From: Candidatus Zambryskiibacteriota bacterium
GTDB taxonomy: Bacteria > Patescibacteriota > Minisyncoccia > Phycocordibacterales > WO2-35-19
Direction of reading: 5' to 3'
Length of the DNA stretch: 64,000 nt
Assembly: GCA_048499675.1 (NCBI GenBank)
Contig: JASNZL010000001.1
Coordinates: 58,747-122,746, forward strand
This document shows, one piece after another, positions 6,370-57,063 of the stretch; within the stretch, counting starts at the first letter, position 1; each line of letters begins with the position of its first letter. The translations under genes and the position numbers were made by a program. Below the pieces are notes generated by a model. The model saw nothing but the letters and a program-made list of their open reading frames with translations, did not search any database and was not told the DNA's origin.

Positions 6370-6840
6370 ATGAAAAAAGAAGCACGAGTACAAAAAATAG
6401 AACCAATGTTGTTTGAAACATATATCGCTAGTATAAAAAATAGTGTTGGTTCAAAAATGTTTAGACAGATATATGCAAAAATAAACAGTAAGAAAATAGA
6501 TATAACAGAAAACGGTAATCTTTCTTGTGCATACTATGTTTCTTCCCTACTTTTGATTTTTAAACTCGTAAGCGAGGTACATGCAACAGTTTCGGGCACA
6601 GTAAGAGATCTAAAAGAGTCGGGCTGGATAGAAATAGCTAAGCCAAAAATTGGTTCTATTTTGGTATGGTCTAAAAAAGATTTCGGTAAAGGAGATTTAC
6701 ATAGCCATATTGGATTCTATATTGGTAAAGATGAGGCTATAAGCAACAGTTATAAAAAAAGAATTATAGAAAAACATCACTATACTTACAAAAACACAAG
6801 AAAAATAGAGATGATTTTTTGGAACAAAAAACTATCTTAA
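6370..6840 (+). CDS. Small papain-fold (CHAP / NlpC-P60-like) domain protein, a putative cell-wall amidase.
   Basis: 156 aa. Candidate catalytic Cys (NLSCAYYVSS) and His (GDLHSHIGFYIG) lie ~70 aa apart. Located directly downstream of murC. Confidence 0.3.
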   Translation: MKKEARVQKIEPMLFETYIASIKNSVGSKMFRQIYAKINSKKIDITENGNLSCAYYVSSLLLIFKLVSEVHATVSGTVRDLKESGWIEIAKPKIGSILVWSKKDFGKGDLHSHIGFYIGKDEAISNSYKKRIIEKHHYTYKNTRKIEMIFWNKKLS

Positions 6841-9800
6841 GGAATTTCAATAGTGCCATCAATAATTCCATTCTCTCCAACATATATATTTTTATTTTTT
6901 ATATTTTGTATTGAATTACCTTCAATTTTTTTGATTTTTACTACATAATTTCCTTCAGGAACTTTAATATAAAATCTACCAAATCTATCTGTTAGAGATT
7001 TGCCAACTAGCATTCCTTCATTACTTATTGGATACACTTCCACATAAAGACCAACAGCAGATTTTCCTTTTGATACAACCTTACAACCCGCAAAAATTGA
7101 AGGTACATATTTTTTCAGTACAGCAAGTGCTATATAAAAAACTAAAAGAGTTCCACTTAAAATATTTATACTAAATATAAAGAATATGAAAGTAGAGACA
7201 AATCCAGTCCAGAATAATATTTCCAAAATACCTCTTAAATACTTCAGATGAGTTGAACTTTTATTTACCAAAACACCTTCTTCTAAGTAGTAATTATTTA
7301 GTAGTGGTATTTTAATCAATGTATTGTTATTTATTTGGTTTGGGTTAAATACACTACCGTTATAATAGTATTCATTTTCTTCGTGACTTATACTGTTATA
7401 ATTTTGTTCTATAGTATAACCTTTTTTATTTACTTCTATACAGACATCTTTGTTGTATTTTTCAAAACTAAATTCACCTTTACTGTTAGTAATTTCATAA
7501 GATAATGCTTTGCTGGTGCTTGCATCCACAATTTTTATCATTACAAAAGCAACTGGTTTTGTATTTATGGTATCAAATACCAAACCATAAATTTTTACCT
7601 TCTTTCTTACAACAAAAAATCTTATAAATGATTGTATTAATCCAATTATCCCAAACAAGAAATCCTTAATACTTTTAATTCTTCCAAGGCCAGAGAACAA
7701 TGATAAAGAATACTGCAAACTCAGAATAATCGGTGCTAATCCAAATATACTCACAGCAAATAGTTTGGATTTTTGATTATAAAAATCCATTAAATTTTGC
7801 TTAAGTGAGGCAAATTTGGAAACAAAATTTTCAAAGTCTACAACTAAAATTATCCTCTTCACTCCCTCTATAAGATCAACTATTTTTCCTCCAACATTAT
7901 TAATATTTTGAGTTATGGAGTCTGTTAAATCAGTTATAATTTCAGTATTAATGGGTGGGATTACAACTTTTGGCGACTCATCTTTCAAAACAGGTTTTTC
8001 ATCAGTTACATCTGGGTGATCGATTTTATCTTCAGGAGATGCAATTTCTGTTATGTTAGTAATATCGTCTTCTACGGGAACAGTATCAGAACCCGAGGTT
8101 TCTTCTTCGACAATAGTGCATCCCAAATTATATGGCCTAAATATTAGTTGATCCTCAGGTGTCATTACAAAATAAAAATGCGATTCAGTGGTATGCCTTT
8201 CTGCAAAGTAAATTTCAAACAAATGCTCACTACTTAAATATACTGTTCCATACATAGATCTTGGAGCATGTATTCCTGAATTATCTGTAATAAGTTTTCC
8301 ATCAATATAAAACCAAGAATCATCATCAGAAGTTATTCTGAATGAATAAAGCCCAGGTTTGAGTACTTCTACTTTTGATTTCCAAACTGCCCCAAAGTAA
8401 TACGCCTTGCCTGAAATGAGTTTTTCAGGAATGTAATTAAACGGGAAAAATGCAGAGCCAAATTTAAGATTTGGACTTGTTTTTGCAAACCTAAAATACT
8501 TATCATCATACCAGTCACCTTGCCAAGCAGATTTACTTGATAGAGGATCACCAAATATATTTTTCCACACACTATCCCATAATTTTGGTGCTACCTGCAC
8601 GTTAGGATGATTCTTTGGGTAATCATAATATTTACCAAACCAACCAAAACTATTTGTTGATACTTCACAATGATCTTCAACTGTCCAACTTTCTAACTCC
8701 TTATTTTGCAAAGCATTACTATGGTTCCAGACAGGGTCAGTTTGTGCCACAAGATCAATGTTGTATAAGGCGCACGATGGATTATTTGGGTTTGCTACGC
8801 AAAACTCGTGGTCTTGATTTCTGTATGCGCCACTACCACTTTGACTAGACCCAGAAATACCCGATTCATTATTAGTCTCTATCGGACACGTATTTGTTTT
8901 GAAAGCTACAGAAGAAGAATACAGGGTCAACACCCCTAAACCATTTCTTGCTCTAGCGCTCAGTTCATAATCAGTATCACAAGCAAGATTCAAAATATTT
9001 GCACTTGTGGTACCAAACCAACCAAAACTTTGATTGGATAATGAGTCGTATATCTCATAATCTGTCAAACTTGGGTTATTGTTAGCATTCCAAAACAACG
9101 AGACTGAATTTTGAGTAACTGTTTCTAGGGTTAATCCAGTTGGAACATTTGCTTCTGTATAAGTTGATACAAATGGAGTTATACCACTATCCCCGTTTGT
9201 ATTAGTCACTGTAGTATAAAAATCATATTTAGTATTGGGTGTAAGGTTAGAACTTGTCCACGTTGCACTATTTGTATTTCCACTATTAGTAGAATTTGTA
9301 ATATTTTGGAAATTATACGGACTAACAGCTAATCCATACTGGGAGTCAGATGAACCAGAAATTGATACTGTTATGGTGCTAGTTCCAACCTCATCTATAG
9401 ATAAATTCCCAGGATTTAAAGAATCTAAAACTTGGTAGTATATAGAATCAGAAACAATACCAGAACTACTTGCGTTGTTATAGAAAATTGCATAAACATT
9501 ATATGTTCCATTTACACAAGGATCTATTCCATCACAAATGTCCCAATTTTTAGTTGTGTTATATGGCTCCAAAACTGATCCAGAAAAATCTGAAAAATTG
9601 GAAATTCTCATGTGAGTAGTTCCTGTTTGTCCAGTTAATTGGAGTGTCACATTACGAGTTGAAACTAATGATTCGTTCTGATTTATTAATAATGCAAAAC
9701 CTTCTGTTACTGCGCCTTCCCAAGGATCTTCTGGCCCTGATCCAGATTCTGAACCATCCCCTGATACATAAACGCTCTCCGCTAATGTTATATCTGTATA

Positions 9801-12800
9801 ATTGTTAGCCTTATCAAATACTCTTATCTTGAAATTATATGTTCCTTCTGAAAGACCATAATTAGTCCACGTTGTATTATTGATGTTTCCAGAGTTTGAA
9901 TAATTGGTTGTATTTTGGAAATTGTATGGATTTGTAGCAAGTCCAGAATCCAAATCATCACCACCAGAAAAGGTTAAAGTCACAGAACTTGTGGTGGTAC
10001 TCAAAACACTTAGTGTACCTGGAATAGGTGCAATAGTATCTAGTTTGAAAGCAATATTTCCACTATTTGCACTTACCCAAGCAGATTCTTCTAAACTTGG
10101 ATCAATACTTTTAACCCTCCAATAATACCCATCTCCACTATCAACCAATGATTGACCTGCGCTACCCATAATGTAATTTCCAGAACCTTCAGTTTGACCT
10201 ACAGTAAAAGTCCTAATTCCCTGAGAACCTGAAGCAGATGTGTAATCAACTACTAAGTCAGTAAACAATGAATCTGTGGATACTTGTAATCTGTATACTA
10301 ATAGATCTGAAGCATCTGGATCATCCAATATAAATCTTAGAGTTGGTTTGTTATTATTTACCCAGCCACCACTTTGGTATTCTGAAAAACCTAAATTATA
10401 AGGATTATTTGGTGCTTGGTTACAAGGAGACGCATCTGGACTGACTGCGCCACTATATGAAGTTTCTATATTTTCAGCATTCCTTGCTTTTACATGAAAT
10501 GAATAAGAAACACCACAAGAAAGACCGCTTATAGTGGTACTTGTAGATGTAATCCATCCTGAATTAAATTCACTAGTTAAATTTTCAACATAATATTCGG
10601 TACCTATAGGATTAGAATTTGCATCCCAACTCACTAATATCTCTGATTGTGATAAAACCTCTGTATTAATATTTGTTGGGATATTTGCTCTAGTATATCT
10701 ACTTGATTCTGGTGTAGTCGACGAATTAAAAGCATTATCTAAAACATCGATTTTATAATTATATAAGGTGTTTGGAGTTAGACCTGTATTACTCCAAGTA
10801 AGACCTGTGGAAGTTGCGATTTGGCCCGTAGTTAGATTGTAATATCTATACAAACCAATACCAGACAAAGAATCACTAGATCCAGCGGTATTCATAGATA
10901 TTGATGTTGGATTAATTGATGTAAAATTTACTGTGCCAGGTATTGGCTCGGTAAGATCTAATTTAAAAGCAATACTTCCAGAATTAGCAAGAGTAAAAGA
11001 TGAGGTTGCACCAACTTCATCAATTGTTTGCACTCTCCAGTAATATGAAGTAGATTCTGAAAGTGTTTGCCCTTCATTTCCTATTGTGTATAAACCAGTA
11101 GATTCGGGTTGACCAACTATAAAATTGTTAGCGCCTTGATTTAACAAACCAGAAGTATAATCAACGACGGGAGACGAATAATTACTATCATTATCTATTT
11201 GTATTCTATACTTTACTTGTTCCAATAAATCTGGATCTGATAATGTAAAATTAAGTGTTGGTGCAGAACTACTTGCCCAACTATTGGTTACATAAATGTT
11301 CGGTCCTAAAGAAGACGGGGAGCTAGGTGCACTATTTTCTTCTCCTGTCGCAAAAGACACATTGTCACCATAAATAATTCCGTCGTTCGTGGAAAGAAAA
11401 GCCCTAACATAATATGTAGTGTTTGGACTCAATCCAGACATCGACTCTGAATAAGGACCAATCTCGTTAATAAAACCACTTTGACTAAAATTTTCATTAG
11501 TGCTTTTAAATTCTATATCAGTGAGCGCTGTATATGTGGACCCATTATTTGCAGATATTAATATTCTATATTTTTCATAAGGCGTCTCGTTTACGAGATT
11601 ATAAGTCCTTGATTCCCTTATAGCCCAACCCGTTTGACTAGTAATAGTTTGTAAATTGATCCAATCTACACCATCCCAAGCTTGAAACTGCCAATCTCTT
11701 GGAGATTCCGTAATTATTTCTGACCCAACTATTACATATCTATTTACGACTACATTATAAGGAAAACCATACTCTAAATCATATGGAGCTCCCGCATTAG
11801 AAAACCACTTTGTTGAAGTACTACTGTCAAAAGCATTGGGAACTAATGCTGAATTTTTCGATCCATATGGTGTTCCAGAAACTATGTTGTCAATCAAGTT
11901 AACATTAGGAAAATTTGGATTATTCCAAGTTGCCCAAACCACCCCATGATTATTAATGGAGTAATATCCAATATTTGTAATTGTAGAATTTGCTGTAGCT
12001 GAAGTTCCAGTATAATTATCAGATATTGAATCTGTTGTAACACTTGGATAAATTGTAGGCAAAACTGTACCATCTGTTCCGTTGTTCAAAACATTTCCAG
12101 TAATTCCTCCACCCGCAGTTCTTGATGGATTGGAAACCGCATTATTTGCATAAATAGCTATTCTACCACCACCACCACCTCTTTTAGCTGCGCTTCCAGC
12201 TCCGTTTGCAGTTATTGAACCAGTTCCCACAAGACCATCTGTTCTTAAATAAACTGAACCCCCTGAACCAGAACCAGGGTTCCAACATAAATCAATTACC
12301 TCTTCTGTGCTACCATTTGAAGAAATACTTCCATTAATAGTAGTAGTACCAGTAATATTCAAAATTATCGCGCCACCACCCCATAAGCCAACCCTATCGT
12401 TTGGAGTACCCCCACTACATGTATAACCTCCTCCTGAACCCAAATCAGTTGGTGCGGTTGAAGACCCATAAGTAGAACCCGGAGTCTCTGGAAGTCCTGC
12501 ACCAAGCGCACCAACACCACCATAGGATGCACCCGAACCAGTTGTTCCGCTATTTGTAGGAGGAGTCCCTGGGCCATTTCCAACAGGATATCCTTTTGCA
12601 TCAACATTAATGCTTCCACCAGAGTTAACAGTTAAATCTCCATTTATTGTCCAATTCAACTTAATTAACGATTCTGTTCCAGTTGTAGCATGAGTGTTGT
12701 AACCATGCGTAAGAATACCATTAACAGTAAGATTGTTATACGACCTCAAGCTTTGATTTAAATTTGAAGCTTCATTAAATATCAATCTAGAAGAAGTCGG

Positions 12801-15419
12801 GACTAGCAAATCTTGATTTTCATCCAACACAGAAACCCCTCCTCCGGAGTCGATAATTGTTCCACCAGACCAATTAATATTTGTATGATTTAAATCATAA
12901 CCTTCCAAGGCGTCAAATATACCATTTGATAGAATATTAAAATCAGTAGTATTCAATGACCCACTTAAGTAAACACTCGCAGAATTTGAAATAGTAAAAG
13001 AATCGAGATTTGTTATTTCTACTGGTACTGGAGTTAATCCAACTAAATATTCTACATTAGTTCCTAAATTATTATTACCAATAATAAGTTGCCCATAATT
13101 TTGTTCTGAAGACTTTTTATATACTGTTCCGGCTCCAGCAAATCTCTTTATTGAATTTGGGACCCTATAACCCCCTCCATTTGCGGTCATGTTTACAGTC
13201 GAACTATCATTTTCATAATAAACAGCAATTCTTCCTCCACCGCCACCAACATAAGGATTAGCTCCACCACCGTTTGCTGAAATTGTTCCCGAACCAGATA
13301 TACCACCCGTTCTAATATAAACTGAGCCACCAGAACCAGAACCTGGATTCCACGACAGATCAACGGGTTCACTGTTACTTCCATTAGCAGATATTGTACC
13401 GCTTATAGTGGTTGTGCCGACAACATTCATAATGATCGCACCACCACCCCAAAGACCTGTACTCGCGGCACCGGCTCCATTTATAGCCCTACCTCCTCCC
13501 GAACCTAAATCTGTCGGAGCCGTGGTCGAACCATATATATTCCCAAGTGTTTCTGGTGTTCCCACACCAAGAGATCCAAAACCACCATGTGATGCCCCAG
13601 TGCCAGTTGTACCACTAATAGATGGAGGAGAACCTGTTCCAGCGGTTGCATGATATCCTCTGGAGTTTGCATTTATAGATCCCAAAATTGTTGCGTCACC
13701 TCCCACCTCCAAATTAATTCTACCTAAAATTGTATTTGTGCTCGTTGAGTGGGTAATAGATGCATTTGTATAAATTATTAAGCTATTGTTTATACTCAGT
13801 GCACCATTTTCATATGCGTCATAATTAAAATTTAATACTGAAGTATCTGTACCACCAACATTTCCAATAGTTAAAGAGTTAATAGTTGTTGCGGAATTAA
13901 TATTTACAAAAATATTACTTGCAATTACAACATCGTCGTCCACCCCCGGAACCAAATCATTACTCCAATTTAATGCATCATTCCAATTACTTGTTCCGGC
14001 GCCACCATCCCACGACACTGCTGAGTTATATGCATTTACAACTTCGCCTCCAAATTCAAATATTAAATGATGTTTTCCGGTAGTGTTTATTTCGTGTGAG
14101 ATAATGGCCACATCATCACAGCTCCAACTAGGGTAAAAGATTGCGTCATCAACCAAAACTTGCACCAAAGCAGTCATATCTTCCTCGCCACAAAATATAG
14201 ATTTGAAATCCATATCATCAATCGTCTCTTGGTCAGCTGGTTTAATATACAAATCTGAAACACCATTTGTAACAAAAGATACTTTCCACTCCTGACCCGC
14301 TATAGGGTGTGAATGGACATTTAAAACTGATATTTCAAATGTGGGATCAACAACAACTGGATAAACTGAATTAGATAACCAATCAGTATCTGGAATAAGC
14401 CTGAGAGTATTCCCATTAATTTCAAAAAATATTTCTTCGCTAACTGCTCCAGTAGAATCAAACATAAGTGGAGCTGTTATTGAGAAAATTTTGAACAAGG
14501 GATTATTTGATTTTCCTTTTTTATATAAATCTATCTGATTTTTTGAAATCTGAACAAAATCATAATCGTCCATATTTAACTCATATTCAAAAAAATCAGG
14601 ATGCCCAGAACCTTCAAGTAGAATAGACTCTTTAATCCCCTTATCTGTAAATTCATAAAGAAGATCTGTTTTATCAAAAACATTTTTGTATCTTACCTTG
14701 TCTCCTTCTATAACTCTTTGTGAAGTTGTCGCCACATTGAGTATGCGCATAGTTATCCCTGAGCCAGATATCCTATTATTGGAATAGATCAATATTGGAT
14801 CTTTGAGTTCAATTGGCAGTTCAGATTTAAAAATATCATTCTCTTTTGTAATAACACTTTCAATCTCTAGATCGTTCTCTATTTCAATATCAACTATTTT
14901 TTTGTTTACAATAATCAAGGCGTCATCTTCTTCAGAAGAATCGCTCGGAGTACTATCGTTGTCACTAGACAAATTATTCGCAATTACCTCATCATTTTGT
15001 TTATAAGTTTGACTATCTTCTGATGTAACATTTGTTTTGGTATCGACACTATCACTATCTTCTTGGTTTAAAGATTCATCAAAATCATTTTCATTAGAAT
15101 CTATTTCTTGATACTCGTTTGCAGTATCTAGGTCGTTAAATTCATCAACTTGTTGAACTTCGAAATCCTTCACAGCATCAAGATTCAATTCATCCATAAG
15201 CTCACCTTCGGTATCAGAATTATTAGCCTCTATTTCAGTCGTATTATTATCTAAAATTATTTCATTAAATTCATTAGAATCATGATTCACCTCTTCGACT
15301 GAAGCAACATCTAAATCAACGATAGAAGCAAATGCGACTAAACTCTGGTTTGTTAAAAAAACAAAACCTAATACAAATGAAAAAAATCTGTTAAATTTTT
15401 TTACTGAGTAGAAATACAT
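6837..15419 (-). CDS. Giant secreted surface protein (2860 aa). It contains acidic low-complexity sequence, Gly-rich beta-helix repeats, fibronectin-III-like repeats, a discoidin (F5/8 type C) domain, a PA14 domain, C-terminal TM segments and carboxypeptidase-regulatory-like beta-sandwich domains.
   Basis: N-terminal signal peptide (FVFLTNQSLVAFASI). D/E/N/S-rich region. Repeated GSGSGGSVY(L/I)RT...ANGGG beta-helix-like units. LTPNT.Y.YKI FN3-like repeats. Discoidin-like block KWFSNAGAPYDLEYGF...TDIEFKS. PA14-like block GKAYYFGAVWKS...FYIDGKLITDNSG...FEIYFAERH. Hydrophobic C-terminal segments. Confidence 0.7.
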   Translation of the reverse strand: MYFYSVKKFNRFFSFVLGFVFLTNQSLVAFASIVDLDVASVEEVNHDSNEFNEIILDNNTTEIEANNSDTEGELMDELNLDAVKDFEVQQVDEFNDLDTANEYQEIDSNENDFDESLNQEDSDSVDTKTNVTSEDSQTYKQNDEVIANNLSSDNDSTPSDSSEEDDALIIVNKKIVDIEIENDLEIESVITKENDIFKSELPIELKDPILIYSNNRISGSGITMRILNVATTSQRVIEGDKVRYKNVFDKTDLLYEFTDKGIKESILLEGSGHPDFFEYELNMDDYDFVQISKNQIDLYKKGKSNNPLFKIFSITAPLMFDSTGAVSEEIFFEINGNTLRLIPDTDWLSNSVYPVVVDPTFEISVLNVHSHPIAGQEWKVSFVTNGVSDLYIKPADQETIDDMDFKSIFCGEEDMTALVQVLVDDAIFYPSWSCDDVAIISHEINTTGKHHLIFEFGGEVVNAYNSAVSWDGGAGTSNWNDALNWSNDLVPGVDDDVVIASNIFVNINSATTINSLTIGNVGGTDTSVLNFNYDAYENGALSINNSLIIYTNASITHSTSTNTILGRINLEVGGDATILGSINANSRGYHATAGTGSPPSISGTTGTGASHGGFGSLGVGTPETLGNIYGSTTAPTDLGSGGGRAINGAGAASTGLWGGGAIIMNVVGTTTISGTISANGSNSEPVDLSWNPGSGSGGSVYIRTGGISGSGTISANGGGANPYVGGGGGRIAVYYENDSSTVNMTANGGGYRVPNSIKRFAGAGTVYKKSSEQNYGQLIIGNNNLGTNVEYLVGLTPVPVEITNLDSFTISNSASVYLSGSLNTTDFNILSNGIFDALEGYDLNHTNINWSGGTIIDSGGGVSVLDENQDLLVPTSSRLIFNEASNLNQSLRSYNNLTVNGILTHGYNTHATTGTESLIKLNWTINGDLTVNSGGSINVDAKGYPVGNGPGTPPTNSGTTGSGASYGGVGALGAGLPETPGSTYGSSTAPTDLGSGGGYTCSGGTPNDRVGLWGGGAIILNITGTTTINGSISSNGSTEEVIDLCWNPGSGSGGSVYLRTDGLVGTGSITANGAGSAAKRGGGGGRIAIYANNAVSNPSRTAGGGITGNVLNNGTDGTVLPTIYPSVTTDSISDNYTGTSATANSTITNIGYYSINNHGVVWATWNNPNFPNVNLIDNIVSGTPYGSKNSALVPNAFDSSTSTKWFSNAGAPYDLEYGFPYNVVVNRYVIVGSEIITESPRDWQFQAWDGVDWINLQTITSQTGWAIRESRTYNLVNETPYEKYRILISANNGSTYTALTDIEFKSTNENFSQSGFINEIGPYSESMSGLSPNTTYYVRAFLSTNDGIIYGDNVSFATGEENSAPSSPSSLGPNIYVTNSWASSSAPTLNFTLSDPDLLEQVKYRIQIDNDSNYSSPVVDYTSGLLNQGANNFIVGQPESTGLYTIGNEGQTLSESTSYYWRVQTIDEVGATSSFTLANSGSIAFKLDLTEPIPGTVNFTSINPTSISMNTAGSSDSLSGIGLYRYYNLTTGQIATSTGLTWSNTGLTPNTLYNYKIDVLDNAFNSSTTPESSRYTRANIPTNINTEVLSQSEILVSWDANSNPIGTEYYVENLTSEFNSGWITSTSTTISGLSCGVSYSFHVKARNAENIETSYSGAVSPDASPCNQAPNNPYNLGFSEYQSGGWVNNNKPTLRFILDDPDASDLLVYRLQVSTDSLFTDLVVDYTSASGSQGIRTFTVGQTEGSGNYIMGSAGQSLVDSGDGYYWRVKSIDPSLEESAWVSANSGNIAFKLDTIAPIPGTLSVLSTTTSSVTLTFSGGDDLDSGLATNPYNFQNTTNYSNSGNINNTTWTNYGLSEGTYNFKIRVFDKANNYTDITLAESVYVSGDGSESGSGPEDPWEGAVTEGFALLINQNESLVSTRNVTLQLTGQTGTTHMRISNFSDFSGSVLEPYNTTKNWDICDGIDPCVNGTYNVYAIFYNNASSSGIVSDSIYYQVLDSLNPGNLSIDEVGTSTITVSISGSSDSQYGLAVSPYNFQNITNSTNSGNTNSATWTSSNLTPNTKYDFYTTVTNTNGDSGITPFVSTYTEANVPTGLTLETVTQNSVSLFWNANNNPSLTDYEIYDSLSNQSFGWFGTTSANILNLACDTDYELSARARNGLGVLTLYSSSVAFKTNTCPIETNNESGISGSSQSGSGAYRNQDHEFCVANPNNPSCALYNIDLVAQTDPVWNHSNALQNKELESWTVEDHCEVSTNSFGWFGKYYDYPKNHPNVQVAPKLWDSVWKNIFGDPLSSKSAWQGDWYDDKYFRFAKTSPNLKFGSAFFPFNYIPEKLISGKAYYFGAVWKSKVEVLKPGLYSFRITSDDDSWFYIDGKLITDNSGIHAPRSMYGTVYLSSEHLFEIYFAERHTTESHFYFVMTPEDQLIFRPYNLGCTIVEEETSGSDTVPVEDDITNITEIASPEDKIDHPDVTDEKPVLKDESPKVVIPPINTEIITDLTDSITQNINNVGGKIVDLIEGVKRIILVVDFENFVSKFASLKQNLMDFYNQKSKLFAVSIFGLAPIILSLQYSLSLFSGLGRIKSIKDFLFGIIGLIQSFIRFFVVRKKVKIYGLVFDTINTKPVAFVMIKIVDASTSKALSYEITNSKGEFSFEKYNKDVCIEVNKKGYTIEQNYNSISHEENEYYYNGSVFNPNQINNNTLIKIPLLNNYYLEEGVLVNKSSTHLKYLRGILEILFWTGFVSTFIFFIFSINILSGTLLVFYIALAVLKKYVPSIFAGCKVVSKGKSAVGLYVEVYPISNEGMLVGKSLTDRFGRFYIKVPEGNYVVKIKKIEGNSIQNIKNKNIYVGENGIIDGTIEIP

Positions 15420-15834
15420 TGAATATATTTTATCACAAAAATATATTTATTAGTTATATTTTCAAACACTTTTATTAAAATATGAATATCAAAAAACACT
15501 TCCGATTAACTACAAACAATCAGATAAATTCAGAAAAGTAGTCCAACAAACACCACACCAATAATTCATTTGTAATCTATGAACAGATAGACAAACTGTC
15601 TACATAAATTAAGATATCCTAAAATTTATTATACGCATTATATAGGCTAAAATTAATATAAACACCAATCAACAAATAAATACTAAAAAGTATTAATTTA
15701 CTATCGCAGAATGAGATATTATTAATATTATAAAACATTATAAAAGGTTATATAAGTACAATAATAATTATATGGATTTATATAAAAACCACACCCCGCA
15801 ATCCTAGGACGGCGGGGGTTATTATTAGACCATA

Positions 15835-16020
15835 TCAGGAAGGATTGCTATCATCTTTCCTTTTCTTGGGCCTGTGCATTAGAGCAGTAAGTCCAAGGTT
15901 GCTTATGAGAAAAAGTAGGACGATTCCAATAGTTATCCAAAAATTGTTCACCATCACGACTTCCCCTTCTTTTTTAATTATATCATACTTATAAAAATTT
16001 AAACAAAAATTAACAAACAT
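15835..16020 (-). CDS. Small predicted membrane protein (hypothetical).
   Basis: 61-aa ORF with one hydrophobic helix (WITIGIVLLFLISNLGLTAL). Followed on the minus strand by a CCCCGC...GCGGGG hairpin and a T-run (terminator). Confidence 0.25.
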   Translation of the reverse strand: MFVNFCLNFYKYDIIKKEGEVVMVNNFWITIGIVLLFLISNLGLTALMHRPKKRKDDSNPS

Positions 16021-16323
16021 GACTATCTACTGAGAATCTTTCTTATCCACACCGAAATAAATTTTTTTAATGACTTATACTTCTTTTCTTACACTAAGCG
16101 AGCAGTCGCATCACTTCGGTATTAAGAAAAAACACCAGCCAAAGCTGGGTTTTATTTTGCACACCGGGAGGGATTAGGTCACAGATAAATTTTTTGTCGT
16201 CACAAAAAATTTTCCGCGACCCCGACTCGCGGCCGAGCGTGCTCGCTCGGCATCCGCTCCGTCTTTCTCACCCTCCGGAGGTAGCAAATGAAAAATAGTG
16301 GGAAACCCCACTATTTTTCATTT

Positions 16324-16407
16324 GTGCGCCGGGAGGGATTCGAACCCCCGTAGGCCGAAGCCGTCAGATTTACAGTCTGATGTAATTGACCACTCTACCA
16401 CCGACGC
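16324..16407 (-). tRNA. tRNA-Tyr (anticodon GTA) with a long variable arm.
   Basis: Reverse complement reads GCGTCGGTGGTAGAGTGG...CAGACTGTAAATCTG...GGGGGTTCGAATCCCTCCCGGCGCA. Cloverleaf with a 7-bp acceptor stem, anticodon loop CTGTAAA and a type-II variable arm. Confidence 0.8.
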
Positions 16408-16416
16408 ATACTCATA

Positions 16417-16656
16417 TCATTCTAATAATTTTTTGAAAGCATTTCCACCTTTATAGCTTTTCTTTTCTTTCTCCCTCTTGAAAGCTGTCGAACTATTGGG
16501 ATATAACTCCTTGTAAACTATTTCATATGGTATAAATTTGCAAGTTGATTTATTATATCCTGAATTGTGTTCTTTAATCCTTCTTTCCAAATTATTCGTA
16601 CACCCTATGTAGAATTTGTTTTTAACCCTGCTTTTAATAACGTAAACATTCCACAT
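16417..16656 (-). CDS. GIY-YIG nuclease family protein (small stand-alone GIY-YIG domain, ~79 aa from the internal Met).
   Basis: YVIKSRVKNKFYIGCTNNLERRIKEHNSG matches the GIY-YIG motif. The longer ORF (16417..16767) would read through a tRNA-derived repeat, so the start MWNVYV at 16656 is preferred. Confidence 0.6.
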   Translation of the reverse strand: MWNVYVIKSRVKNKFYIGCTNNLERRIKEHNSGYNKSTCKFIPYEIVYKELYPNSSTAFKREKEKKSYKGGNAFKKLLE

Positions 16657-16788
16657 TGTTTTTATTTTTGGTGTAATTGACTTTACCCCGCCGTGGCGGG
16701 GAGTACCCCGCCGTGGCGGGGCAAGCTCTACCACCGACGCATATCGTTTGCTAAAACATTCTAGCAAACAATATTATATTTTTCCAAC

Positions 16789-19530
16789 CTATTTTACATC
16801 CACACTATCCAGAATTGACGCTTCGATTATTGCACCTCTTTTACCTTTTTTAAATTCAAACACAAGGTCATTATCTTTGACATCTACTGAAACTATACCA
16901 CCTCTCATAATTTGTTTTGATATAATCAAAGATGCAATAGGATTTAAAATTTTATTTTGTATAACTCTCTTTAGAGGTCTTGCTCCGTACTGCGGATTAT
17001 ATCCTTCTTTGGTCAAGAACTCATATGCGCTTTCTGTCAGTTCAAGTGAAATTTCTTTTAGAGACAACCTCTCTCTTACAAAATCAATTTGTATTTTTAC
17101 AATATCTCTTATTGCATCCATAGGCAAAACGTCAAATATAATTATGTCGTCCAACCTGTTTAGAAATTCAGGTCTGAAATGATCCTTGAGTGCTTCCATA
17201 ACCTTATCTTTTACTTCTTCGTAGCTTCCCTCTTCGTTATTTCTTTCCCCAAATCCAAGCTTTTCCATCTTGTCTATATACTGAGCGCCAATATTTGAAG
17301 TCATGACAATAATACTGTTTTTGAAATTAACCGTTCTTCCTTTTGAATCAGTAAGTCTGCCATTATCCAAAACTTGAAGCAATACATTAAACACTTCCGG
17401 ATGAGCTTTTTCTATTTCGTCAAAAAGAATTATTGAGTATGGTCTATGTCTAACCATATCAGTGAGTCCTCCCCCCTCATCAAATCCAACATAACCAGGA
17501 GGTGCACCAATTAGTTTTGAAACAGCATGTTTTTCCATAAATTCTGACATATCAACTCTAATCAATGCGTTTTCATCATTGAACATAAATTCAGCTAGTG
17601 CTTTAGTAAGTTCAGTTTTACCAACGCCAGTAGGTCCCAAGAAAATGAATGAGCCAATTGGTTTATTTGGATCAGAAATCCCAGCTCGAGATCTTTTTAT
17701 TGTATCGGCAATTTTTTTAACAGCATTGTCCTGACCAACAACTCTTTTTGTTAGTTCTTCTTCCATTCTGTTTAGTTTTTCTGCCTCCTCCTCAAGCATT
17801 CGAAAGACAGGAATACCGGTCCATTTTGATACTATGTTTGCTATATCATTTTCAGTTATTTCTTCTTTAAGAATCCTTCTTGAGCTCTGAAGTTTTTTAA
17901 GTCTTTTTATATTTTGATCAAGTACTTTTTCAAGTGTTGGAATTTTACCATACCTTACCTCTGCAGCCTTACCTAAATCAACTTGAGCTTCGGCAGATTC
18001 TGCTTCTAGTCGAGCTTCCTCAAGTTCTTTTTTTATTCTCTTTATTTCCCCAACTGTTTCTTTTTCATTTTTCCATTTCAAGTCTATTTCTGCAGTCTTT
18101 TCTTTAAGGTCTGCAATTTCCTTCTCTATTTCTTGAAGTCTTTTCTTGGCTTTTGTGTTTTTACCTTCCGCTTCTTTTTTTAGCGCTTCTCTTTCTATTT
18201 CAAGTTTAACAATTTTAGAATTTGTCTCTTGCAAAATAGGTGGCATATTTTCCAAAGAAATCTTTAGATGACTCGCCGCCTCATCTATCAAATCAACCGC
18301 TTTGTCTGGCAAAAATCTATCTGCTATATATCTAGAAGAAAGATTAACCGCAGATTTTATAGCATCGTCAGTGATATGCACCCCATGGTAAAGTTCATAC
18401 TTTTCTTTTAAACCTCGAAGAATTGTAACCGCATCATCAATAGAAGGCTCTGACACAAAAACTGGTTGAAATCTTCTTGTTAAAGCTGGGTCCTTTTCAA
18501 TATGCTTCTGGTACTCTTTTATTGTGGTTGCGCCAATAGCTCTCAAATCCCCTCTTGCAAGAGGAGGTTTCAACATATTAGAAGCATCGAGTGAACCTTC
18601 TGCGCTACCGGCTCCAACTATTGTGTGAATCTCGTCAATAAAGAGAATTATTTTACCATCTGATTTTTCTATCTCCTTAATTATGTTTTTTAACCTTTCT
18701 TCAAACTCTCCTCTATATTTTGTTCCTGCAACTAAAAGTCCCAAGTCAAGAGAAACTATTTCTTTATCCTTGAGTGACTCTGGAATATTTCCTGAAACCA
18801 TTCTCATTGCCAAACCTTCTGCAATAGCAGTCTTTCCAACACCCGCCTCTCCTATTAATATAGGATTATTTTTTGTTCGTCTTGCCAAGATTTGTACTAT
18901 ACGAGAAATCTCCTCATCTCTACCAATTACAGGGTCAAGCTTGTTATCTCTCGCCAGTTTTGTAAGTGAACGCGTGAACTTAATTAAATTTTTATTTTTT
19001 GTAACTGGTTTTCCTTCAGTCATTCTTCCTTGTCTTATTTCCTGAATCAAAAACATTACTTTTTCTTTTTCTATTTTGAATTTATTCAAAATATCCCTAG
19101 CTTGACTTGGAAGCTCTAAACAAGCAATGAATAGGTGCTCCGTGGAGACAAATTCATCACTCATATTACTTGCAACTTTTGATGAATGTTCAATTATGTG
19201 AGCAAGCTCAGGTGTTAGATATATTTGGTATGAAGGTGTCGCTGTATTGCCCATTACCCCACCTTCCATGGCATCAAGTAGAGAATCGGTTAGCAAAATT
19301 GTATCAACTTCCATCCTGTCTAAAATAGAAACCACCATACTTTCTTCTTGTAGAATAAGAGCAGTCAAAAGATGTACTGGAGCAACATGGTTTTGACCAC
19401 GTTCAATAACCAGCTCATGAGCCTTTCTAATTACCTCCTTTGCTTTTGTTGTAAATTGATTAAATGGTGTCATACTCAAATAGAATTTGACTATGTTATT
19501 ACATAACAGATTCCGTAGTAATATAGCCAA
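16789..19530 (-). CDS. clpB: ATP-dependent chaperone ClpB.
   Basis: Two AAA+ modules ([13 protein letters not shown] and [15 protein letters not shown]) separated by a long coiled-coil middle domain. N-terminal Clp_N repeats. Confidence 0.85.
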
Positions 19531-25004: not shown

Positions 25005-25160
25005 GAATGGAACTTAACGGTTTTTCGGAGACCGAATTGTGGGCGGCGCAAAGCGCCGCCCACTGATTTCCCCCCATTTTTCCAAACGAATTTGGAGCGT
25101 CGCCTTCGGCGACGCGCACTTTTCTTTCGGCGAGGAGGAGGTGCGAATCAGAAGCAATTT
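24997..25160. repeat. IR-a, left copy. A ~165-bp perfect inverted repeat that includes the att core (tRNA-Leu 3' end) plus ~130 bp of downstream sequence.
   Basis: The reverse complement of 26695..26860 is identical to 24997..25160 by direct comparison (accagaatggaacttaacggtttttcggagaccgaattgtgggcggcgcaaagcgccgcc...gaggaggaggtgcga). Confidence 0.8.
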
Positions 25161-25237: not shown

Positions 25238-26890
25238 ATGGCCGTCCTAGCCAATTCGAGGCGACTTGAGTTGAACGCACTAGGGCGGCCATTTAAGTTG
25301 AGCGCAAAATATATGGAAAAACAAAAATTCTTTTTGTATGCTCGCAAGTCAACTGATGTCGAGGACAAGCAGGTTCTTTCGATTGAAGCACAACTCACCG
25401 AATTGCGGGCGTATGCACGCGAGAATAATTTGGAAATTTCCGCCGAAATAGTGGAAAAGCAATCTGCAAAATATCCGGGTCGCCCTTTGTTCAACAAGAT
25501 GATGGATGACATTGAAAAGAACGGCGGAAATATTCTCGCGTGGAATCCCGATCGTCTCGCCCGCAATTCGGTGGACGGAGGAAGGATTATTTATCTCCTC
25601 GACACAGGGAAACTTGTGAGCCTAAAATTTCCAACATTTTGGTGCGACAACACATCGCAGGGGAAATTTATGTTGAATATGGCATTTGGCCAAAGCAAAT
25701 ACTATGTGGATTCTCTTTCCGAAAATACGAAACGCGGACTTCGCCAAAAAGTAAGAATGGGTATATTTCCAAGTCAAGCGCCTTTGGGATATCTCAACGA
25801 TTCGAGAACAAAGACGATTGTTGTAGAAAAGAAAAAATCTCGCATTGTGCGCTTGGCTTTTGAGAGATATGTCAAAGGTAATCAACGGCTAGAAGATATT
25901 GCCGAATTTTTGGCGAAGTCCGGCGTTACAACCAGAACCGGAAGGAGAATCTCCAAAACTAGAGCGTCTTTTATCCTTTCCAATCCGTTCTATATCGGAC
26001 TATTCAAATATGGCGGTGAAATCCACGAAGGAAAGCACGAACCAATCATTTCAAAGAAACTTTTTGACGAAGCGCAAGAAATGCTACGCAAGCGCGGACA
26101 ACCTGAACGCAAGCCACAGAATGAACCACAACCTTTCTGTGGTCTCATTTCCTGCGCTTCTTGCGGAATGATGATAACTGCCGAGAACAAAACGAAGCGA
26201 CAGAAGAATGGCAATGTTCATCACTATATTTACTATCGTTGTACCAAAAAGAGAAAAGATTTTAAGTGTAACGAGCTGTCGCTTCGTTCTGAAGAAGTAG
26301 ACAAGCAGTTATCATCTCTCATTCAAAAAGTTTCTTTGCCCAAAGACTGGGCGGAAGAATTATTGAAAATGGCGGAAAATGACCACAAAAAATCCGCCCA
26401 GTCTTTGACTGCTTGCGTGAAAGAAAAAGAGGAAATGATTTCTTCTCTCTCGCAAAAACTGGAGCGACTTCTTAATGGCTATCTCGACCAAATAATTGAT
26501 CAAGTGGACTATACTTCACAGAAATCAAAACTGTTATCTGAAAAGAAGTCGCTCGAAGAAGAAATCTTTACTTTTTCACACAAGCAGAATGATTGGCTCG
26601 CACCCTTTCAATCTTGGCTAAAATACGCTCAATCCTTGGACAAAATTGCTTCTGATTCAGACCTTTTTGCTAAAAAGGTCTGGGCCAAAGAAATCTTTGG
26701 CTCGCACCTCCTCCTCGCCGAAAGAAAAGTGCGCGTCGCCGAAGGCGACGCTCCAAATTCGTTTGGAAAAATGGGGGGAAATCAGTGGGCGGCGCTTTGC
26801 GCCGCCCACAATTCGGTCTCCGAAAAACCGTTAAGTTCCATTCTGGTGTCTTTATTTTACCAAGCTCGCACCTTTTTTCAAAATCGGTGA
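25238..26890 (+). CDS. Large serine recombinase (resolvase/invertase catalytic domain, recombinase domain, zinc ribbon and coiled-coil).
   Basis: N-terminus YARKSTDVEDKQVLSIEAQLTELRAYAREN contains the catalytic Ser. Zinc-ribbon CGLISCASCGM...YYRCTKKRKDFKC. ~480-550 aa. The last ~60 codons run into inverted repeat IR-a', so the true stop may lie earlier. Confidence 0.8.
   Translation: MAVLANSRRLELNALGRPFKLSAKYMEKQKFFLYARKSTDVEDKQVLSIEAQLTELRAYARENNLEISAEIVEKQSAKYPGRPLFNKMMDDIEKNGGNILAWNPDRLARNSVDGGRIIYLLDTGKLVSLKFPTFWCDNTSQGKFMLNMAFGQSKYYVDSLSENTKRGLRQKVRMGIFPSQAPLGYLNDSRTKTIVVEKKKSRIVRLAFERYVKGNQRLEDIAEFLAKSGVTTRTGRRISKTRASFILSNPFYIGLFKYGGEIHEGKHEPIISKKLFDEAQEMLRKRGQPERKPQNEPQPFCGLISCASCGMMITAENKTKRQKNGNVHHYIYYRCTKKRKDFKCNELSLRSEEVDKQLSSLIQKVSLPKDWAEELLKMAENDHKKSAQSLTACVKEKEEMISSLSQKLERLLNGYLDQIIDQVDYTSQKSKLLSEKKSLEEEIFTFSHKQNDWLAPFQSWLKYAQSLDKIASDSDLFAKKVWAKEIFGSHLLLAERKVRVAEGDAPNSFGKMGGNQWAALCAAHNSVSEKPLSSILVSLFYQARTFFQNR
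26695..26860. repeat. IR-a', the inverted copy of the att-core region on the distal side of the recombinase gene.
   Basis: See IR-a. It contains the inverted att core aaaaaccgttaagttccattctggtgtc. Confidence 0.8.
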
Positions 26891-46815: not shown

Positions 46816-47026
46816 TCGCAAAATATATTCGCTTTGCTCATTATTTTGCGGAGGGTAGAGGATTTGGTCACGCATAATTTTTTTCAAAAATTTGCTCGAC
46901 CCCGACTCCCCTTCGCAAGCTCAGGGTCCGTCTTTCAAATCCCAAAAAGTACTATCCGAAGTACTTTTTGCCCCTCTCGCAAAATATATTCGCTTTGCTC
47001 ATTATTTTGCGGAGGGTAGAGGATTT
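46816..47026. repeat. ~50-bp direct repeat pair flanking a ~110-bp unit downstream of tRNA-Ser. One copy includes the tRNA-Ser 3' end.
   Basis: ctcgcaaaatatattcgctttgctcattattttgcggagggtagaggattt occurs at 46816..46866 and 46976..47026. The intervening sequence contains the conserved GAAAGACGG...GAGTCGGGGTCGAG motif on the minus strand. Confidence 0.75.
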
Positions 47027-56810: not shown

Positions 56811-56847
56811 TTGTAACTAAATATAACATTCTCCTCATACTATATGC

Positions 56848-57063
56848 AAAACCCCGCATACGCGGGGTTAGTTGTGCCAAAGCGCAGGGCTCGGTGTCAG
56901 CTCACATCAATATTTTACTTCGCTATGCTTGTAAAATATTGTGTGGCTCCTACCCGGGCTCGCCTGTCGCAATGCGACATGGCTCCGCCTTTCGAGCCCG
57001 CACAAGAGCAAAGCAGTTTGCTCTTTCCCTCGTCACAAAACCCCGCATACGCGGGGTTAGTTG
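56848..57063. repeat. tRNA-Phe-associated unit. Terminator hairpin plus the tRNA 3'-end copy is duplicated (56848..56880 and 57036..57068), flanking ~150 bp that contains the conserved GC-rich motif.
   Basis: aaaaccccgcatacgcggggttagttgtgcc occurs twice. The intervening sequence (minus sense) reads ...cgaaaggcggagccatgtcgcattgcgacaggcgagcccgggtagg, homologous to the right arm of the tRNA-Leu element. Confidence 0.7.

Follow-up and report, generated by a model that had tools for sequence, protein, structure and literature searches.

A gene for a small GIY-YIG nuclease lies within the 5' part of a tRNA-Tyr gene in the window (the whole 64-kb stretch of DNA analyzed here). We believe, with a probability of about two in three, that the segment between the two copies of the tRNA 5' end is a minimal free-standing GIY-YIG mobile ORF cassette of the homing type, inserted into the 5' part of tRNA-Tyr and carrying its own copy of that part, with which the tRNA is rebuilt. 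The insertion has a readable polarity, the segment is present at some orthologous loci and absent from others, the catalytic residues of its nuclease are intact, and the same architecture recurs across its family. The cassette is apparently one case of a large and undescribed bacterial family of tRNA-nested, GC-hairpin-marked cassettes. No description of such an arrangement was found in the literature on GIY-YIG genes with tRNA-gene duplication or adjacency, Patescibacteria, partial tRNAs or UPF0213/YhbQ/COG2827.

Layout of the tRNA-Tyr locus

All features described here lie on the minus strand. The upstream neighbor, outside the element, is a 913-aa ORF (16789..19530) that provides a synteny anchor and encodes ClpB, as judged from the Pfam domains Clp_N, AAA and ClpB_D2-small in orthologues and from tblastn identities of 57-86% to ClpB of related loci. 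It is followed by the resident promoter and leader of tRNA-Tyr (16744..16788), which now precede a pseudo-5'-half of the tRNA and the ORF. The promoter-like sequence TTGGAA-18-TAGAAT (16787-16758) is a consensus match only; the leader is homologous to that directly before tRNA-Tyr in empty orthologous loci.

The pseudo-half begins at 16726..16743 with an exact 18-nt repeat of 16393-16410. This 18-mer, CTCTACCACCGACGCATA, occurs exactly twice in the 64 kb (0 expected from shuffles) and corresponds to tRNA positions -3 to 15, covering, after 3 leader nucleotides, the 5' strands of the acceptor stem and the D-stem and the first part of the D-loop. The spacing between the repeats is 333 nt, of which the ORF takes up 240. 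A first-pass annotation had reported the duplication, twin hairpins and a GIY-YIG gene, all of which we confirm, and had given the duplicate as 18 bp. The 18-nt repeat stands, but the copy extends further, because TGGTGTAATTGAC (16669..16681) also matches the tRNA, at 12 of 13 positions of 16378-16390 (repeat family D7). This inner piece represents tRNA positions of about 18-29 (3' part of the D-loop, D-stem 3' strand and start of the anticodon stem), with 0 mismatches over 18-27. The distal copy is thus a pseudo-5'-half that spans tRNA positions -3 to about 29, with the hairpins inside its D-loop. As the two tRNA copies in the window are identical over 18 nt and match at 12/13 nt more, their origins are indistinguishable from each other there. 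Between the outer and inner pieces (16682..16725), the sequence CTTG-CCCCGCCACGGCGGGG-TACT-CCCCGCCACGGCGGGG-TAAA, read on the minus strand, stands in place of 2 nt of the pseudo-tRNA D-loop. It holds two GC palindromes of the form CCCCGCC..GGCGGGG, seen as a tandem pair of TACCCCGCCGTGGCGGGG (16684-16701 and 16704-16721), and the window has no further copy of this palindrome (0.04 expected). Folded either as RNA or as DNA (z=-4.3), the twin hairpins form a single long nested helix on the retained D-stem.

The GIY-YIG gene (16417..16656) encodes 79 aa followed by a stop codon, and consists of the catalytic domain only. A longer ORF (16417-16767, 116 aa) is open in the same frame, and it had been proposed that its length simply reflects read-through of the hairpins. 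The extent of the Pfam domain agrees with this view, and we accept the 79-aa start because homologues begin at the same Met and an independent assembly (L001) calls the same 79-aa gene. The recovery of an identical 1.46-kb contig in an independent run indicates that the locus is not an assembly artefact. Downstream lies the functional tRNA-Tyr(GTA) (16324..16407), which was identified by ARAGORN and has a full-length cloverleaf (Rfam tRNA, 59.5 bits). A promoter-like sequence, TGGAAA-17-TAGAAT (16419..16447), is located inside the 3' end of the ORF, 11 nt upstream of the functional tRNA; it too is a consensus match only, and possibly represents an element-borne tRNA promoter. Directly 3' of the tRNA is a perfect, terminator-like hairpin of 18 bp (16285..16324; inverted repeat I1, 100% complementary, 4-nt loop). 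Rfam searches of the whole window (gathering score) and of 15700-17000 and 56700-57400 (E up to 5) returned tRNAs only, with no intron, ribozyme, tmRNA or known sRNA.

A bare GIY-YIG domain and its tRNA-nested family

Judged from its sequence, the protein has a complete set of catalytic residues and consists of nothing but a GIY-YIG catalytic domain. Residues 1-66 match Pfam GIY-YIG (PF01541; E=2e-14, 54 bits versus a cutoff of 22.6). Across 41 family sequences, Y5, Y16, G18, R26, H30 and E62 are invariant and N72 is nearly so; all are present in the window protein, as are the family-invariant K66 and Y68-G71. By this comparison, the catalytic set (two motif Tyr, Arg, His, metal-binding Glu and Asn) is complete. 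An AF2 model (pLDDT 84) predicts a beta-beta-alpha-beta-alpha-alpha order (E2-9, E15-20, H23-32, E44-52, H55-68, H72-78), with a three-stranded sheet flanked by helices as in the GIY-YIG superfamily, and its best Foldseek matches are UPF0213 1ZG2 (rank 1), SLX1 and I-TevI (probabilities 0.92-1.0). At the sequence level, phmmer matches to UPF0213 structures are weak (1ZG2, E=0.0017, 22 bits, 29% identity; 1YWL, E=0.0082). A search of NCBIfam gave no family-level match and no UPF0213 model, and TIGR01453 matched only at positions 4-38 (25 bits versus a cutoff of 56). UPF0213/YhbQ proteins (PDB 1ZG2 BH0048, 1YWL EF2693) are likewise single-domain GIY-YIG proteins of about 80-100 aa, provide the best sequence and fold matches, and share a YIG..RR..H motif in the alignment. 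Compared with UPF0213 by sequence and fold, the window family is set apart by its C-terminal KSYKGGNAFKKLL motif and its hairpin-bearing, tRNA-nested context. The idea of a DNA-binding extension, raised in the first-pass annotation, does not hold, as both Pfam and the AF2 model show catalytic domain throughout the 79 aa and no separate DNA-binding domain. Because classical GIY-YIG homing enzymes need such a domain for site recognition, this counts against homing.

Further copies had been envisaged in the same genome. The window contains a single family member, at one of its 8 tRNAs; thousands of relatives sit beside tRNAs elsewhere, in a family of 5,174 cluster representatives. A same-strand tRNA is found within about 100 nt of the ORF in 73 of 79 sampled genome loci, compared to about 2% by chance. 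At least 13 tRNA isotypes host the family, in layouts with either the ORF or the tRNA first. On the far side of the ORF is a 5' or 3' partial copy of the same tRNA (scores 28-114, versus a shuffle maximum of about 20), and such a copy is present in at least 52 of 71 loci, with a hairpin flanked by tRNA-matching sequence in at least 39/71. Both counts come from an automated parser of hairpin and tRNA coordinates and are underestimates, as manual reading adds positives; the parser overlooks loci whose ORF extends far into the tRNA, as well as Gly loci, whose tRNAs start with GCGGG and so mislead its stem finder. ORF clades follow tRNA isotype, with rare switches, and many family ORFs have their stop codon within the tRNA, with gaps of -9 to -22 nt. 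The repeat and hairpins of the window are the standard architecture of this family, not a one-off signature.

The hairpin is a hallmark of the family and is embedded in the pseudo-tRNA. In different phyla and at different isotypes, the ORF comes with a nearly invariant (C/T)CCCGC(C) palindrome. Hairpins are enriched around the ORF, with 103 of 182 in 517 kb lying no more than 150 nt away. They usually occupy a cloverleaf loop or take the place of the anticodon arm; a CTTG-hairpin-TRAA insert occupies the same D-loop position in L002, L004, L014, L016, L022 and L028, and also in the Ser-tga loci L090 and L092. On the sense strand, the loops of the hairpins favor A (CAAG 7 versus CTTG 2, CAGG 7 versus CCTG 0), and where pseudo-tRNA is present on both sides of the ORF, the paired hairpins are near-identical in L038, L043, L087 and L089. 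No G.U wobble signal for an RNA-level stem was seen, imperfect stems having 0 G.T and 2 A.C mismatches. RNA-level selection on the stem is hence unsupported, and only the A bias of the sense-strand loops remains.

These properties bear on an alternative in which the cassette is mobile and its nuclease is something other than a sequence-specific homing enzyme. Either the GC palindrome would be its substrate or handle, or the pseudo-tRNA transcript would guide it, and breaks beside the tRNA-derived arms would drive recombination into other tRNA genes. The restriction of the protein to a catalytic domain is in keeping with this idea, as are the nearly invariant palindrome near the ORF, its invariably tRNA-derived flanks, the A-rich loops and the near-identical hairpin pairs. 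However, the mismatch counts speak against an RNA-level stem, a break in an occupied allele would normally turn it into an empty one, and a guided GIY-YIG enzyme is without biochemical precedent. Moreover, the hairpins could be plain inheritance from the common ancestor of the family. On balance, we consider this alternative unlikely. For the homing-type cassette that we favor, the hairpin is a candidate for interrupting the homology between repeats so that the cassette escapes deletion, for wrecking the cleavage site in the remnant, or for serving as a handle for a structure-specific nuclease.

Occupied and empty ClpB-tRNA-Tyr junctions

Six metagenomic junctions between ClpB and tRNA-Tyr are empty (L109, L120, L126, L157, L164, L172). 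In L126, L157, L164 and L172, which have the ClpB closest to that of the window (84-86% identical), the whole segment is absent, whereas the occupied lineages are more distant (66-74%). Among the 69 metagenomic loci with an identical 27-nt tRNA-Tyr 5' end, 68 have no ORF upstream, the six junctions included. These junctions support the original proposal that tRNA-Tyr received a GIY-YIG gene on its 5' side and had its 5' end duplicated in the process. The opposite picture, of an ancient gene present at every orthologous locus and lacking the repeat, does not describe the data, as every occupied lineage in the tRNA-Tyr comparison carries repeat plus hairpins. Two ORF-less loci (L130, L171) keep the pseudo-half and hairpin, and three others (L101, L123, L169) hold other remnants; we infer that these five represent a decay stage after ORF loss.

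Comparison with the empty loci also gives the polarity of the insertion. In empty orthologous loci, the tRNA starts 26-70 nt past the ClpB stop codon, behind a TTTGCTAnAnTnTTTTAGnAA leader. In the window, the same leader is found 45 nt past the ClpB stop, but it opens into the pseudo-half. Because the resident promoter, the leader and the ClpB spacing all stay with the pseudo-half, the latter is the original 5' end of the gene. It follows that the inserted DNA supplied the new 5' part, and the first 15 to about 29 nt of the functional tRNA-Tyr are a copy brought by the insert.

Three observations at these loci count against homing. First, among occupied lineages, ORF identity is roughly parallel to ClpB identity (72 versus 73, 63 versus 71, 59 versus 66), suggesting long vertical persistence rather than frequent horizontal homing. 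Second, the functional tRNA of occupied L014 is the same as that of empty L157 over at least the first 58 nt, and comparison of the 5' 58 nt with empty alleles revealed no protective substitutions in the functional tRNA of occupied alleles. A nuclease that recognizes tRNA sequence alone would therefore cut its own allele. Third, in L002 and L022, the pseudo-half shows 0 mismatches to its own tRNA, versus 3-4 to the commoner tRNA-Tyr sequence. Such tracking of a lineage-specific tRNA requires recent within-population events, gene conversion, or selection on the remnant. The empty relatives may also owe their state to one clean loss in their ancestor.

The parallel divergence, the tracking of the tRNA by the pseudo-half and the invariance of the catalytic residues would all suit an ancient, vertically inherited gene of benefit to the host. 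The protein would then be a housekeeping, UPF0213/YhbQ-like structure-specific nuclease linked to tRNA operons, acting for example on R-loops or hairpins where tRNA genes are strongly transcribed; the pseudo-half would function as a leader, and the empty loci would be secondary losses. Consistent with this, the relatives of known structure that come closest are UPF0213 proteins and the structure-specific nuclease SLX1, and the hairpins that can be placed mostly lie in cloverleaf loops or replace a whole arm. Yet the four junctions with the closest ClpB lack the segment cleanly and have normal spacing, and ORF-less remnants exist. The family occurs at 13 or more isotypes and in two layouts that mirror each other, and in each a part of the cognate tRNA is duplicated, which marks an insertion and not an operon; moreover, 7 of the 8 tRNAs in the window do without the gene, and the UPF0213 models of NCBIfam do not match it. 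These data make a host-beneficial origin improbable. The UPF0213 housekeeping family had been named at the outset as a competing identity. Here the resemblance is superficial: UPF0213 proteins are the closest solved structures and the gene does recur downstream of ClpB in several lineages, but it does so because the target tRNA-Tyr sits there.

Proposed mode of insertion and known systems

In the homing-type insertion that we favor, the cassette-borne tRNA 5' part would yield a complete tRNA-Tyr downstream of the ORF, and the resident 5' end, with its promoter and leader, would be left upstream as a pseudo-5'-half with GC palindrome(s) in its D-loop. Transcription of the ORF would start at the resident tRNA promoter and run through the pseudo-half and hairpin, which would form the 5' leader of the message; the tRNA would be either cut out of the ORF transcript or made from the promoter-like site in the 3' end of the ORF. 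Spread between related genomes would occur by homologous recombination, with the flanking tRNA-derived sequences acting as portable homology arms, and the nuclease may promote it by breaking unoccupied tRNA alleles, as in homing. Later loss of the ORF would leave hairpin-bearing remnants.

A close parallel in organization is found in fungal mitochondria. The mORFs of Allomyces macrogynus (atp6) and Glomus (atp6, atp9, cox2, nad3) are free-standing endonuclease ORFs, of the GIY-YIG type in Glomus atp9, which supply the host gene with a new terminus, so that the native one persists as a duplicate on the far side of the ORF; close relatives are without the insert (PMC3630166). In the window, as in at least 52/71 family loci, a functional gene on one side of the ORF is similarly paired with a displaced partial copy on the other, and in the window the displaced copy is the native one, retaining the ClpB-proximal leader and the spacing of empty loci. 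mORFs are often in phase with, or run into, the host gene, much as family stop codons often fall inside the tRNA. The two differ in that mORFs target protein genes of mitochondrial genomes, whereas the target here is a tRNA gene of a bacterial chromosome. In addition, family cassettes duplicate either end of the target, the enzyme has only about 80 aa, and the displaced fragment is near-identical to the functional copy and carries a conserved GC palindrome, placed in a cloverleaf loop or substituting for the anticodon arm.

A second parallel is SegB of phage T4, a free-standing GIY-YIG homing endonuclease encoded in a tRNA gene cluster. Its site includes a conserved tRNA-gene motif (the T-psi-C stem-loop), its gene is absent from related genomes, and its relaxed specificity is such that it also cuts a tRNA gene of its own genome (PMC2330249). 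SegB thus shares with the window enzyme a place among tRNA genes and a patchy presence. However, the SegB ORF is 666 bp, versus 240 bp here. It lies between tRNA genes, and neither a partial tRNA duplicate nor a hairpin accompanies it. SegB is also phage-borne, whereas a scan of viral contigs for the present family turned up no full-length member, its only matches being partial ones, in the N-terminal motif, to other GIY-YIG proteins; a phage origin was rejected on this basis. Like the I-TevI/Seg-type genes in general, the window gene is present in some and absent from other homologous loci (the ClpB-tRNA-Tyr junctions); unlike them, it encodes no joined DNA-binding domain. More tentatively, the cassettes may form a distinct and hitherto unrecognized class of minimal bacterial mobile element, made up of an 80-aa nuclease with a catalytic domain only and a conserved GC palindrome, and able to nest in tRNA genes of any isotype because it carries the displaced tRNA part. 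Its target would be chosen by the tRNA-derived arms around the hairpin, not by a DNA-binding domain of the protein; the nuclease would use the hairpin as a handle, and the arms, as homology or guide sequences, would be re-templated at each new target.

In CPR bacteria, GIY-YIG ORFs have been described in non-intron insertion sequences of rRNA genes, at the tops or bases of stem-loops, in a study with no mention of tRNA (PMC11270868). These share with the window cassette the phylum, the GIY-YIG ORF, the non-intron nature of the insertion and a structural RNA gene as target. There, the rRNA is interrupted and the inserted RNA must be removed, whereas here the tRNA is intact and the interrupted copy is a pseudo-fragment.

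Integrase-type islands and prophages also enter a tRNA gene, restore it with an element-borne copy and leave a partial tRNA duplicate. Such tRNA islands depend on a recombinase, extend over kilobases and leave the 3' part of the gene in duplicate. The window insert measures 333 bp, has no integrase or other recombinase between the repeats (the 79-aa ORF being the only one) and duplicates the 5' end, and an island of this type was rejected for these reasons. A group I intron was rejected because there is no ribozyme core, because 240 of the 333 inserted nt are ORF, and because the tRNA is uninterrupted. That the repeats are the remnant of either element, with the GIY-YIG gene as leftover cargo, is very improbable: tRNA genes are indeed classic integration sites, where partial tRNA duplicates are left (PMC9897764), and Patescibacteria tRNA genes do bear group I introns (bioRxiv 10.1101/2025.07.03.662931), but the functional tRNA here is continuous, neither RF00028 nor any other ribozyme or non-tRNA Rfam family appears at E up to 5 in 15700-17000, and the described Patescibacteria tRNA introns encode HNH, not GIY-YIG, enzymes.

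If the homing-type reading is correct, the tRNA genes of Patescibacteria and other phyla host a very abundant and so far undescribed selfish cassette, and the paradigm of mitochondrial mORFs and phage Seg enzymes extends to bacterial chromosomes and RNA genes. The cassette would be a natural case of an insertion that restores its target gene, with universal tRNA sequence as its portable homology. Annotation shows just a "GIY-YIG family protein" beside a normal tRNA, often with a false N-terminal extension through the hairpins, and the pseudo-halves are a source of mis-annotated tRNA fragments. A biochemical question is posed as well, namely how an 80-residue nuclease without a DNA-binding domain finds its target and what job the conserved palindrome does. 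Presence or absence of the cassette offers a fine-scale strain marker for unculturable organisms.

Separate from the GIY-YIG cassette, a structured non-coding element (16158..16284, minus strand) is nested at the 3' side of the same tRNA. Its end duplicates the T-stem and the acceptor 3' strand of the tRNA (16158-16175, repeat family D1), and RNAfold pairs its 5' and 3' arms (z=-5.0). Six sister units are found at four other tRNAs in the window. An inverted copy of the tRNA 3' end, of like kind, lies downstream of tRNA-Tyr in the ORF-less locus L109, and the core of the element varies between genomes.

The tRNA-Tyr locus and its nuclease gene

The first-pass annotation of this DNA had claimed an 18-bp duplication of the 5' end of tRNA-Tyr, twin tandem hairpins beside the distal copy, and a 79-aa GIY-YIG protein, all of which hold. 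tRNA-Tyr(GTA) was called at 16324-16407 on the minus strand, and the 18-mer CTCTACCACCGACGCATA is present at just two places in the window (16393-16410 and 16726-16743; 0 expected), spaced 333 nt apart. A tandem pair of TACCCCGCCGTGGCGGGG palindromes is found at 16684-16721, a sequence absent from the rest of the 64 kb. Because TGGTGTAATTGAC, at 16669-16681, also matches the tRNA (16378-16390) at 12 of 13 positions, the distal copy is a pseudo-5'-half of the tRNA. It runs from 3 nt of leader through the acceptor 5' strand and the D-arm into the beginning of the anticodon stem. Its D-loop houses the twin hairpins, which take the place of two bases, and folding stacks them as a single long helix on the retained D-stem (z = -4.3 for RNA or DNA). 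An identical arrangement, with the same 79-aa gene called, is found on an independent 1.46-kb assembly contig (L001).

A 116-aa ORF (16417-16767) runs through the hairpins; the actual gene is the 79-aa ORF at 16417-16656. The GIY-YIG domain spans this window protein end to end (Pfam E = 2e-14), with no DNA-binding extension. Its active site is intact: Y5, Y16, G18, R26, H30, E62, K66 and Y68-G71, invariant among 41 family members, are all present in the window copy. An AlphaFold model (pLDDT 84) predicts a minimal beta-beta-alpha-beta-alpha-alpha GIY-YIG fold, whose closest structural counterparts are UPF0213 BH0048, SLX1 and the catalytic domain of I-TevI. No full-length relatives were found in viral contigs. 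Within the conserved C-terminal coding sequence (..KGGNAFKKLLE), a promoter-like TGGAAA-17-TAGAAT, a consensus match only, lies at 16419-16447 (minus strand) and ends 11 nt short of the functional tRNA-Tyr. The cassette may supply that tRNA with a putative promoter from the 3' end of the ORF.

We searched a metagenome collection with an intact tRNA-Tyr 27-mer, taking a contiguous D-loop as the sign of a functional gene. No GIY-YIG ORF lies upstream of tRNA-Tyr in 68 of the 69 loci with sufficient upstream sequence, and six of these 68 are plain junctions between the upstream ClpB gene and tRNA-Tyr. In four of the six (L126, L157, L164, L172) ClpB is 84-86% identical to that of the window, with similar ClpB tails; such empty junctions in relatives bear out the earlier proposal of an insertion. 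In these four loci and L109, the tRNA begins 26-70 nt past the ClpB stop, preceded by a TTTGCTAnAnTnTTTTAGnAA..AT-type leader. A homologous leader is found in the window 45 nt past the ClpB stop, but it leads into the pseudo-half. This homology, together with the position relative to ClpB, identifies the pseudo-half as the original 5' end of the resident gene. The insert is the DNA that starts with the hairpins, includes the ORF and takes in the first 15-29 nt of the functional tRNA, with exact boundaries that are ambiguous inside the repeat.

The junction is polymorphic. Loci L002, L004, L014, L016, L019 and L028, with more distant ClpB (66-74% identity), are occupied. Two loci without the ORF (L130, L171) still have a pseudo-half, interrupted by CTTG-hairpin-TGAA, immediately before the tRNA, and other remnants occur in L101, L123 and L169. 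This distribution of empty, occupied and remnant loci is the pattern of invasion and decay expected of a selfish ORF.

A family of tRNA-nested ORFs

Further copies, which the first-pass annotation had suggested seeking, turned out to form a large family: a profile search returned 5,174 cluster representatives (50% identity) at E up to 1e-10. The relatives are GIY-YIG-only proteins of ~80 aa, chiefly from Patescibacteria. Many members (e.g. protein entries P0002-P0004, P0116, P0119) have N-terminal extensions of 20-50 aa, which may reflect gene callers reading through hairpins and pseudo-tRNA, as in the 116-aa ORF of the window. Using the family alignment, we retrieved 80 genome loci, from many Patescibacteria classes, Ignavibacteria, Bacteroidota, Omnitrophota, Endomicrobiales and Neomarinimicrobiota. 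Several TPA_asm bins titled Gammaproteobacteria, Planctomycetia or Bdellovibrionales (L024, L027, L034, L044, L045, L052, others) carry a Patescibacteria-type cassette, and their taxon labels may be wrong.

A same-strand tRNA lies within ~100 nt of the ORF in 73 of the 79 loci scored for tRNA proximity, compared to ~2% by chance given the tRNA density of those loci. The adjoining isotypes are Tyr, Ser, Gly, Thr, Pro, Glu, His, Lys, Asp, Phe, Leu, Met and Trp. Two mirror-image layouts are seen, and in each the opposite side of the ORF bears a partial copy of its own adjoining tRNA (at least 52 of 71 loci by strict automatic criteria). An ORF upstream of its tRNA is accompanied by a copy of the tRNA from position 1 to about 15, 25 or 36 (a 5' part), and a downstream ORF by one from about 34 or 43 to the end (a 3' part). 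ORF clades track tRNA isotype, with a few switches, for example of L017 to Ser and of L048 to Thr, and moves among Gly isoacceptors. More than one family ORF, each at a different tRNA, is found in several MAGs (the pairs L035/L036, L044/L069 and L067/L079 each come from a single MAG), and L034, L045 and L091 have 2-3 ORFs each.

Partial copies, where placeable, are mostly broken at cloverleaf loops: 7/8, D-loop, anticodon loop or T-loop. At other loci a (C/T)CCCGC(C)-N3-5-(G)GCGGG(G/A) palindrome, often double, substitutes for the whole 17-nt anticodon arm. In the tRNA-Tyr clade, to which the window belongs, the hairpin sits at D-loop position 16/17 between CTTG and TRAA. GC hairpins fall within 150 nt of an ORF in 103 of 182 cases in 517 kb. 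Their stems are perfect Watson-Crick palindromes and show no G.U signature, though on the sense strand the loops are rich in A. The hairpin may reduce the length of uninterrupted repeat homology and so shield the cassette from deletion; it may instead destroy the cleavage site within the remnant, or serve as a handle for the nuclease.

Some loci are more elaborate. Many ORF-before-tRNA members (L027, L031, L032, L036, L042, L045, L047, L052, L055, L072, L075, others) have their stop codon 9-22 nt within the tRNA 5' end, so that tRNA sequence specifies the final residues and the mRNA would lose its stop codon on RNase P processing. Hairpin-bearing pseudo-tRNA pieces flank both sides in L024, L038, L043, L046, L078, L085, L087 and L089, in the order 5' part, functional tRNA, ORF, 3' part. 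The paired hairpins of L038, L043, L087 and L089 are near-identical, as if the tRNA and ORF had split one hairpin-substituted pseudo-tRNA. A second, almost full-length tRNA-Tyr copy, with two GC hairpins within its anticodon loop, lies 3' of the functional tRNA-Tyr in L048 (about 4480-4580) and in L070 (downstream of an N run). In L048, the ORF, tRNA-Thr, tRNA-Tyr and a terminator are flanked by a Thr pseudo-5'-part containing a hairpin on one side and by a Tyr pseudo-3'-part on the other, a bracketing which suggests that entire tRNA operon segments could be replaced.

Origin and persistence of the cassette

The closest documented mechanism is that of the mitochondrial mORF, in which an endonuclease ORF enters a gene with a replacement terminus and the native terminus remains as a duplicate; in Allomyces, mobility has been shown to be driven by the endonuclease (PMC3630166). 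Phage T4 SegB is a GIY-YIG homing enzyme that recognises a conserved tRNA-gene motif and tolerates some cutting of its own genome (PMC2330249). Given these precedents, the window segment is most likely a bacterial, tRNA-targeted mORF-like cassette. The nuclease would break its target and stimulate recombination, the tRNA-derived flanks would act as homology arms for recombining into unoccupied alleles of related genomes, and the cassette would be transcribed from the resident tRNA promoter. What the sequences show directly is the insertion and its polarity, the polymorphism, the intact active site and the architecture common to the family; transcription, homology arms and cleavage are proposed on that basis.

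Several observations complicate this mechanism. The functional tRNAs of occupied and empty alleles are identical over at least 58 nt, so recognition of the tRNA sequence alone would give no self-immunity. Among occupied lineages, ORF identity follows ClpB identity, indicating long vertical persistence. Even where the D-stem has lineage-specific substitutions, the pseudo-half equals its own tRNA (in L002 and L022, 0 mismatches versus 3-4 to the commoner tRNA-Tyr sequence), and hence within-population turnover, gene conversion or selection is needed.

[quoted passage not shown] Full-text literature searches turned up neither a GIY-YIG gene nested in a partially duplicated tRNA gene nor a pseudo-tRNA with a hairpin substitution. 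We class the cassette as a known kind, a free-standing homing-type ORF duplicating the terminus of its target gene, in an apparently undescribed form, nested in a tRNA gene and bearing a hairpin.

Non-coding elements and other window features

Downstream of five of the eight window tRNA genes (Tyr, Leu-tag, Glu, Ser, Phe) stand 1-2 units of a 125-220-nt non-coding element with no Rfam match. These lie at 16158-16284, 46847-46981 and 56875-57035 (minus strand) and at 34777-34922, 34955-35100, 47345-47470 and 47517-47738 (plus strand). Relative to the 3' end of the tRNA it follows, a unit has an antisense 5' arm and, as its 3' arm, a sense copy; a tRNA-Tyr 3'-end copy at 16158-16175 belongs to this element and not to the cassette. 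Units share a core, AGACGG..GAGTCGGGGTCG..GTGACC (weaker in the Leu units), trailer and terminator are frequently duplicated, and all seven fold with the tRNA-specific arms paired (z -4.0 to -7.7). Inverted-then-direct 3'-end copies also lie 3' of tRNA-Tyr in other Patescibacteria loci: of 65 metagenomic tRNA-Tyr genes, 7 have them (0 in shuffles), six of the seven without a GIY-YIG ORF. The element is independent of the cassette, but it shows that inserts of more than one kind nest at tRNA genes in these genomes.

Upstream of tRNA-Phe, 57190-57433 (minus strand) may be a 5'-nested non-coding insert; it has a direct partial tRNA-Phe copy at 57419-57433 and the GAAAGGTGTACAGATnnTGTAAGnATC motif, also present in L002, L018 and the second Glu unit. 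Pairs of GC-rich hairpins at 25041-25120 and 26733-26810 (GGGCGGCG..CGCCGCCC and GCGTCGCC..GGCGACGC), directly 3' of tRNA-Cys and tRNA-Leu(taa), form an inverted repeat around about 1.7 kb. Finally, a 2,860-aa ORF at 6837-15419 (minus strand), with repetitive Gly/Ser/Thr-rich segments and a hydrophobic C-terminal region, probably encodes a giant surface protein.
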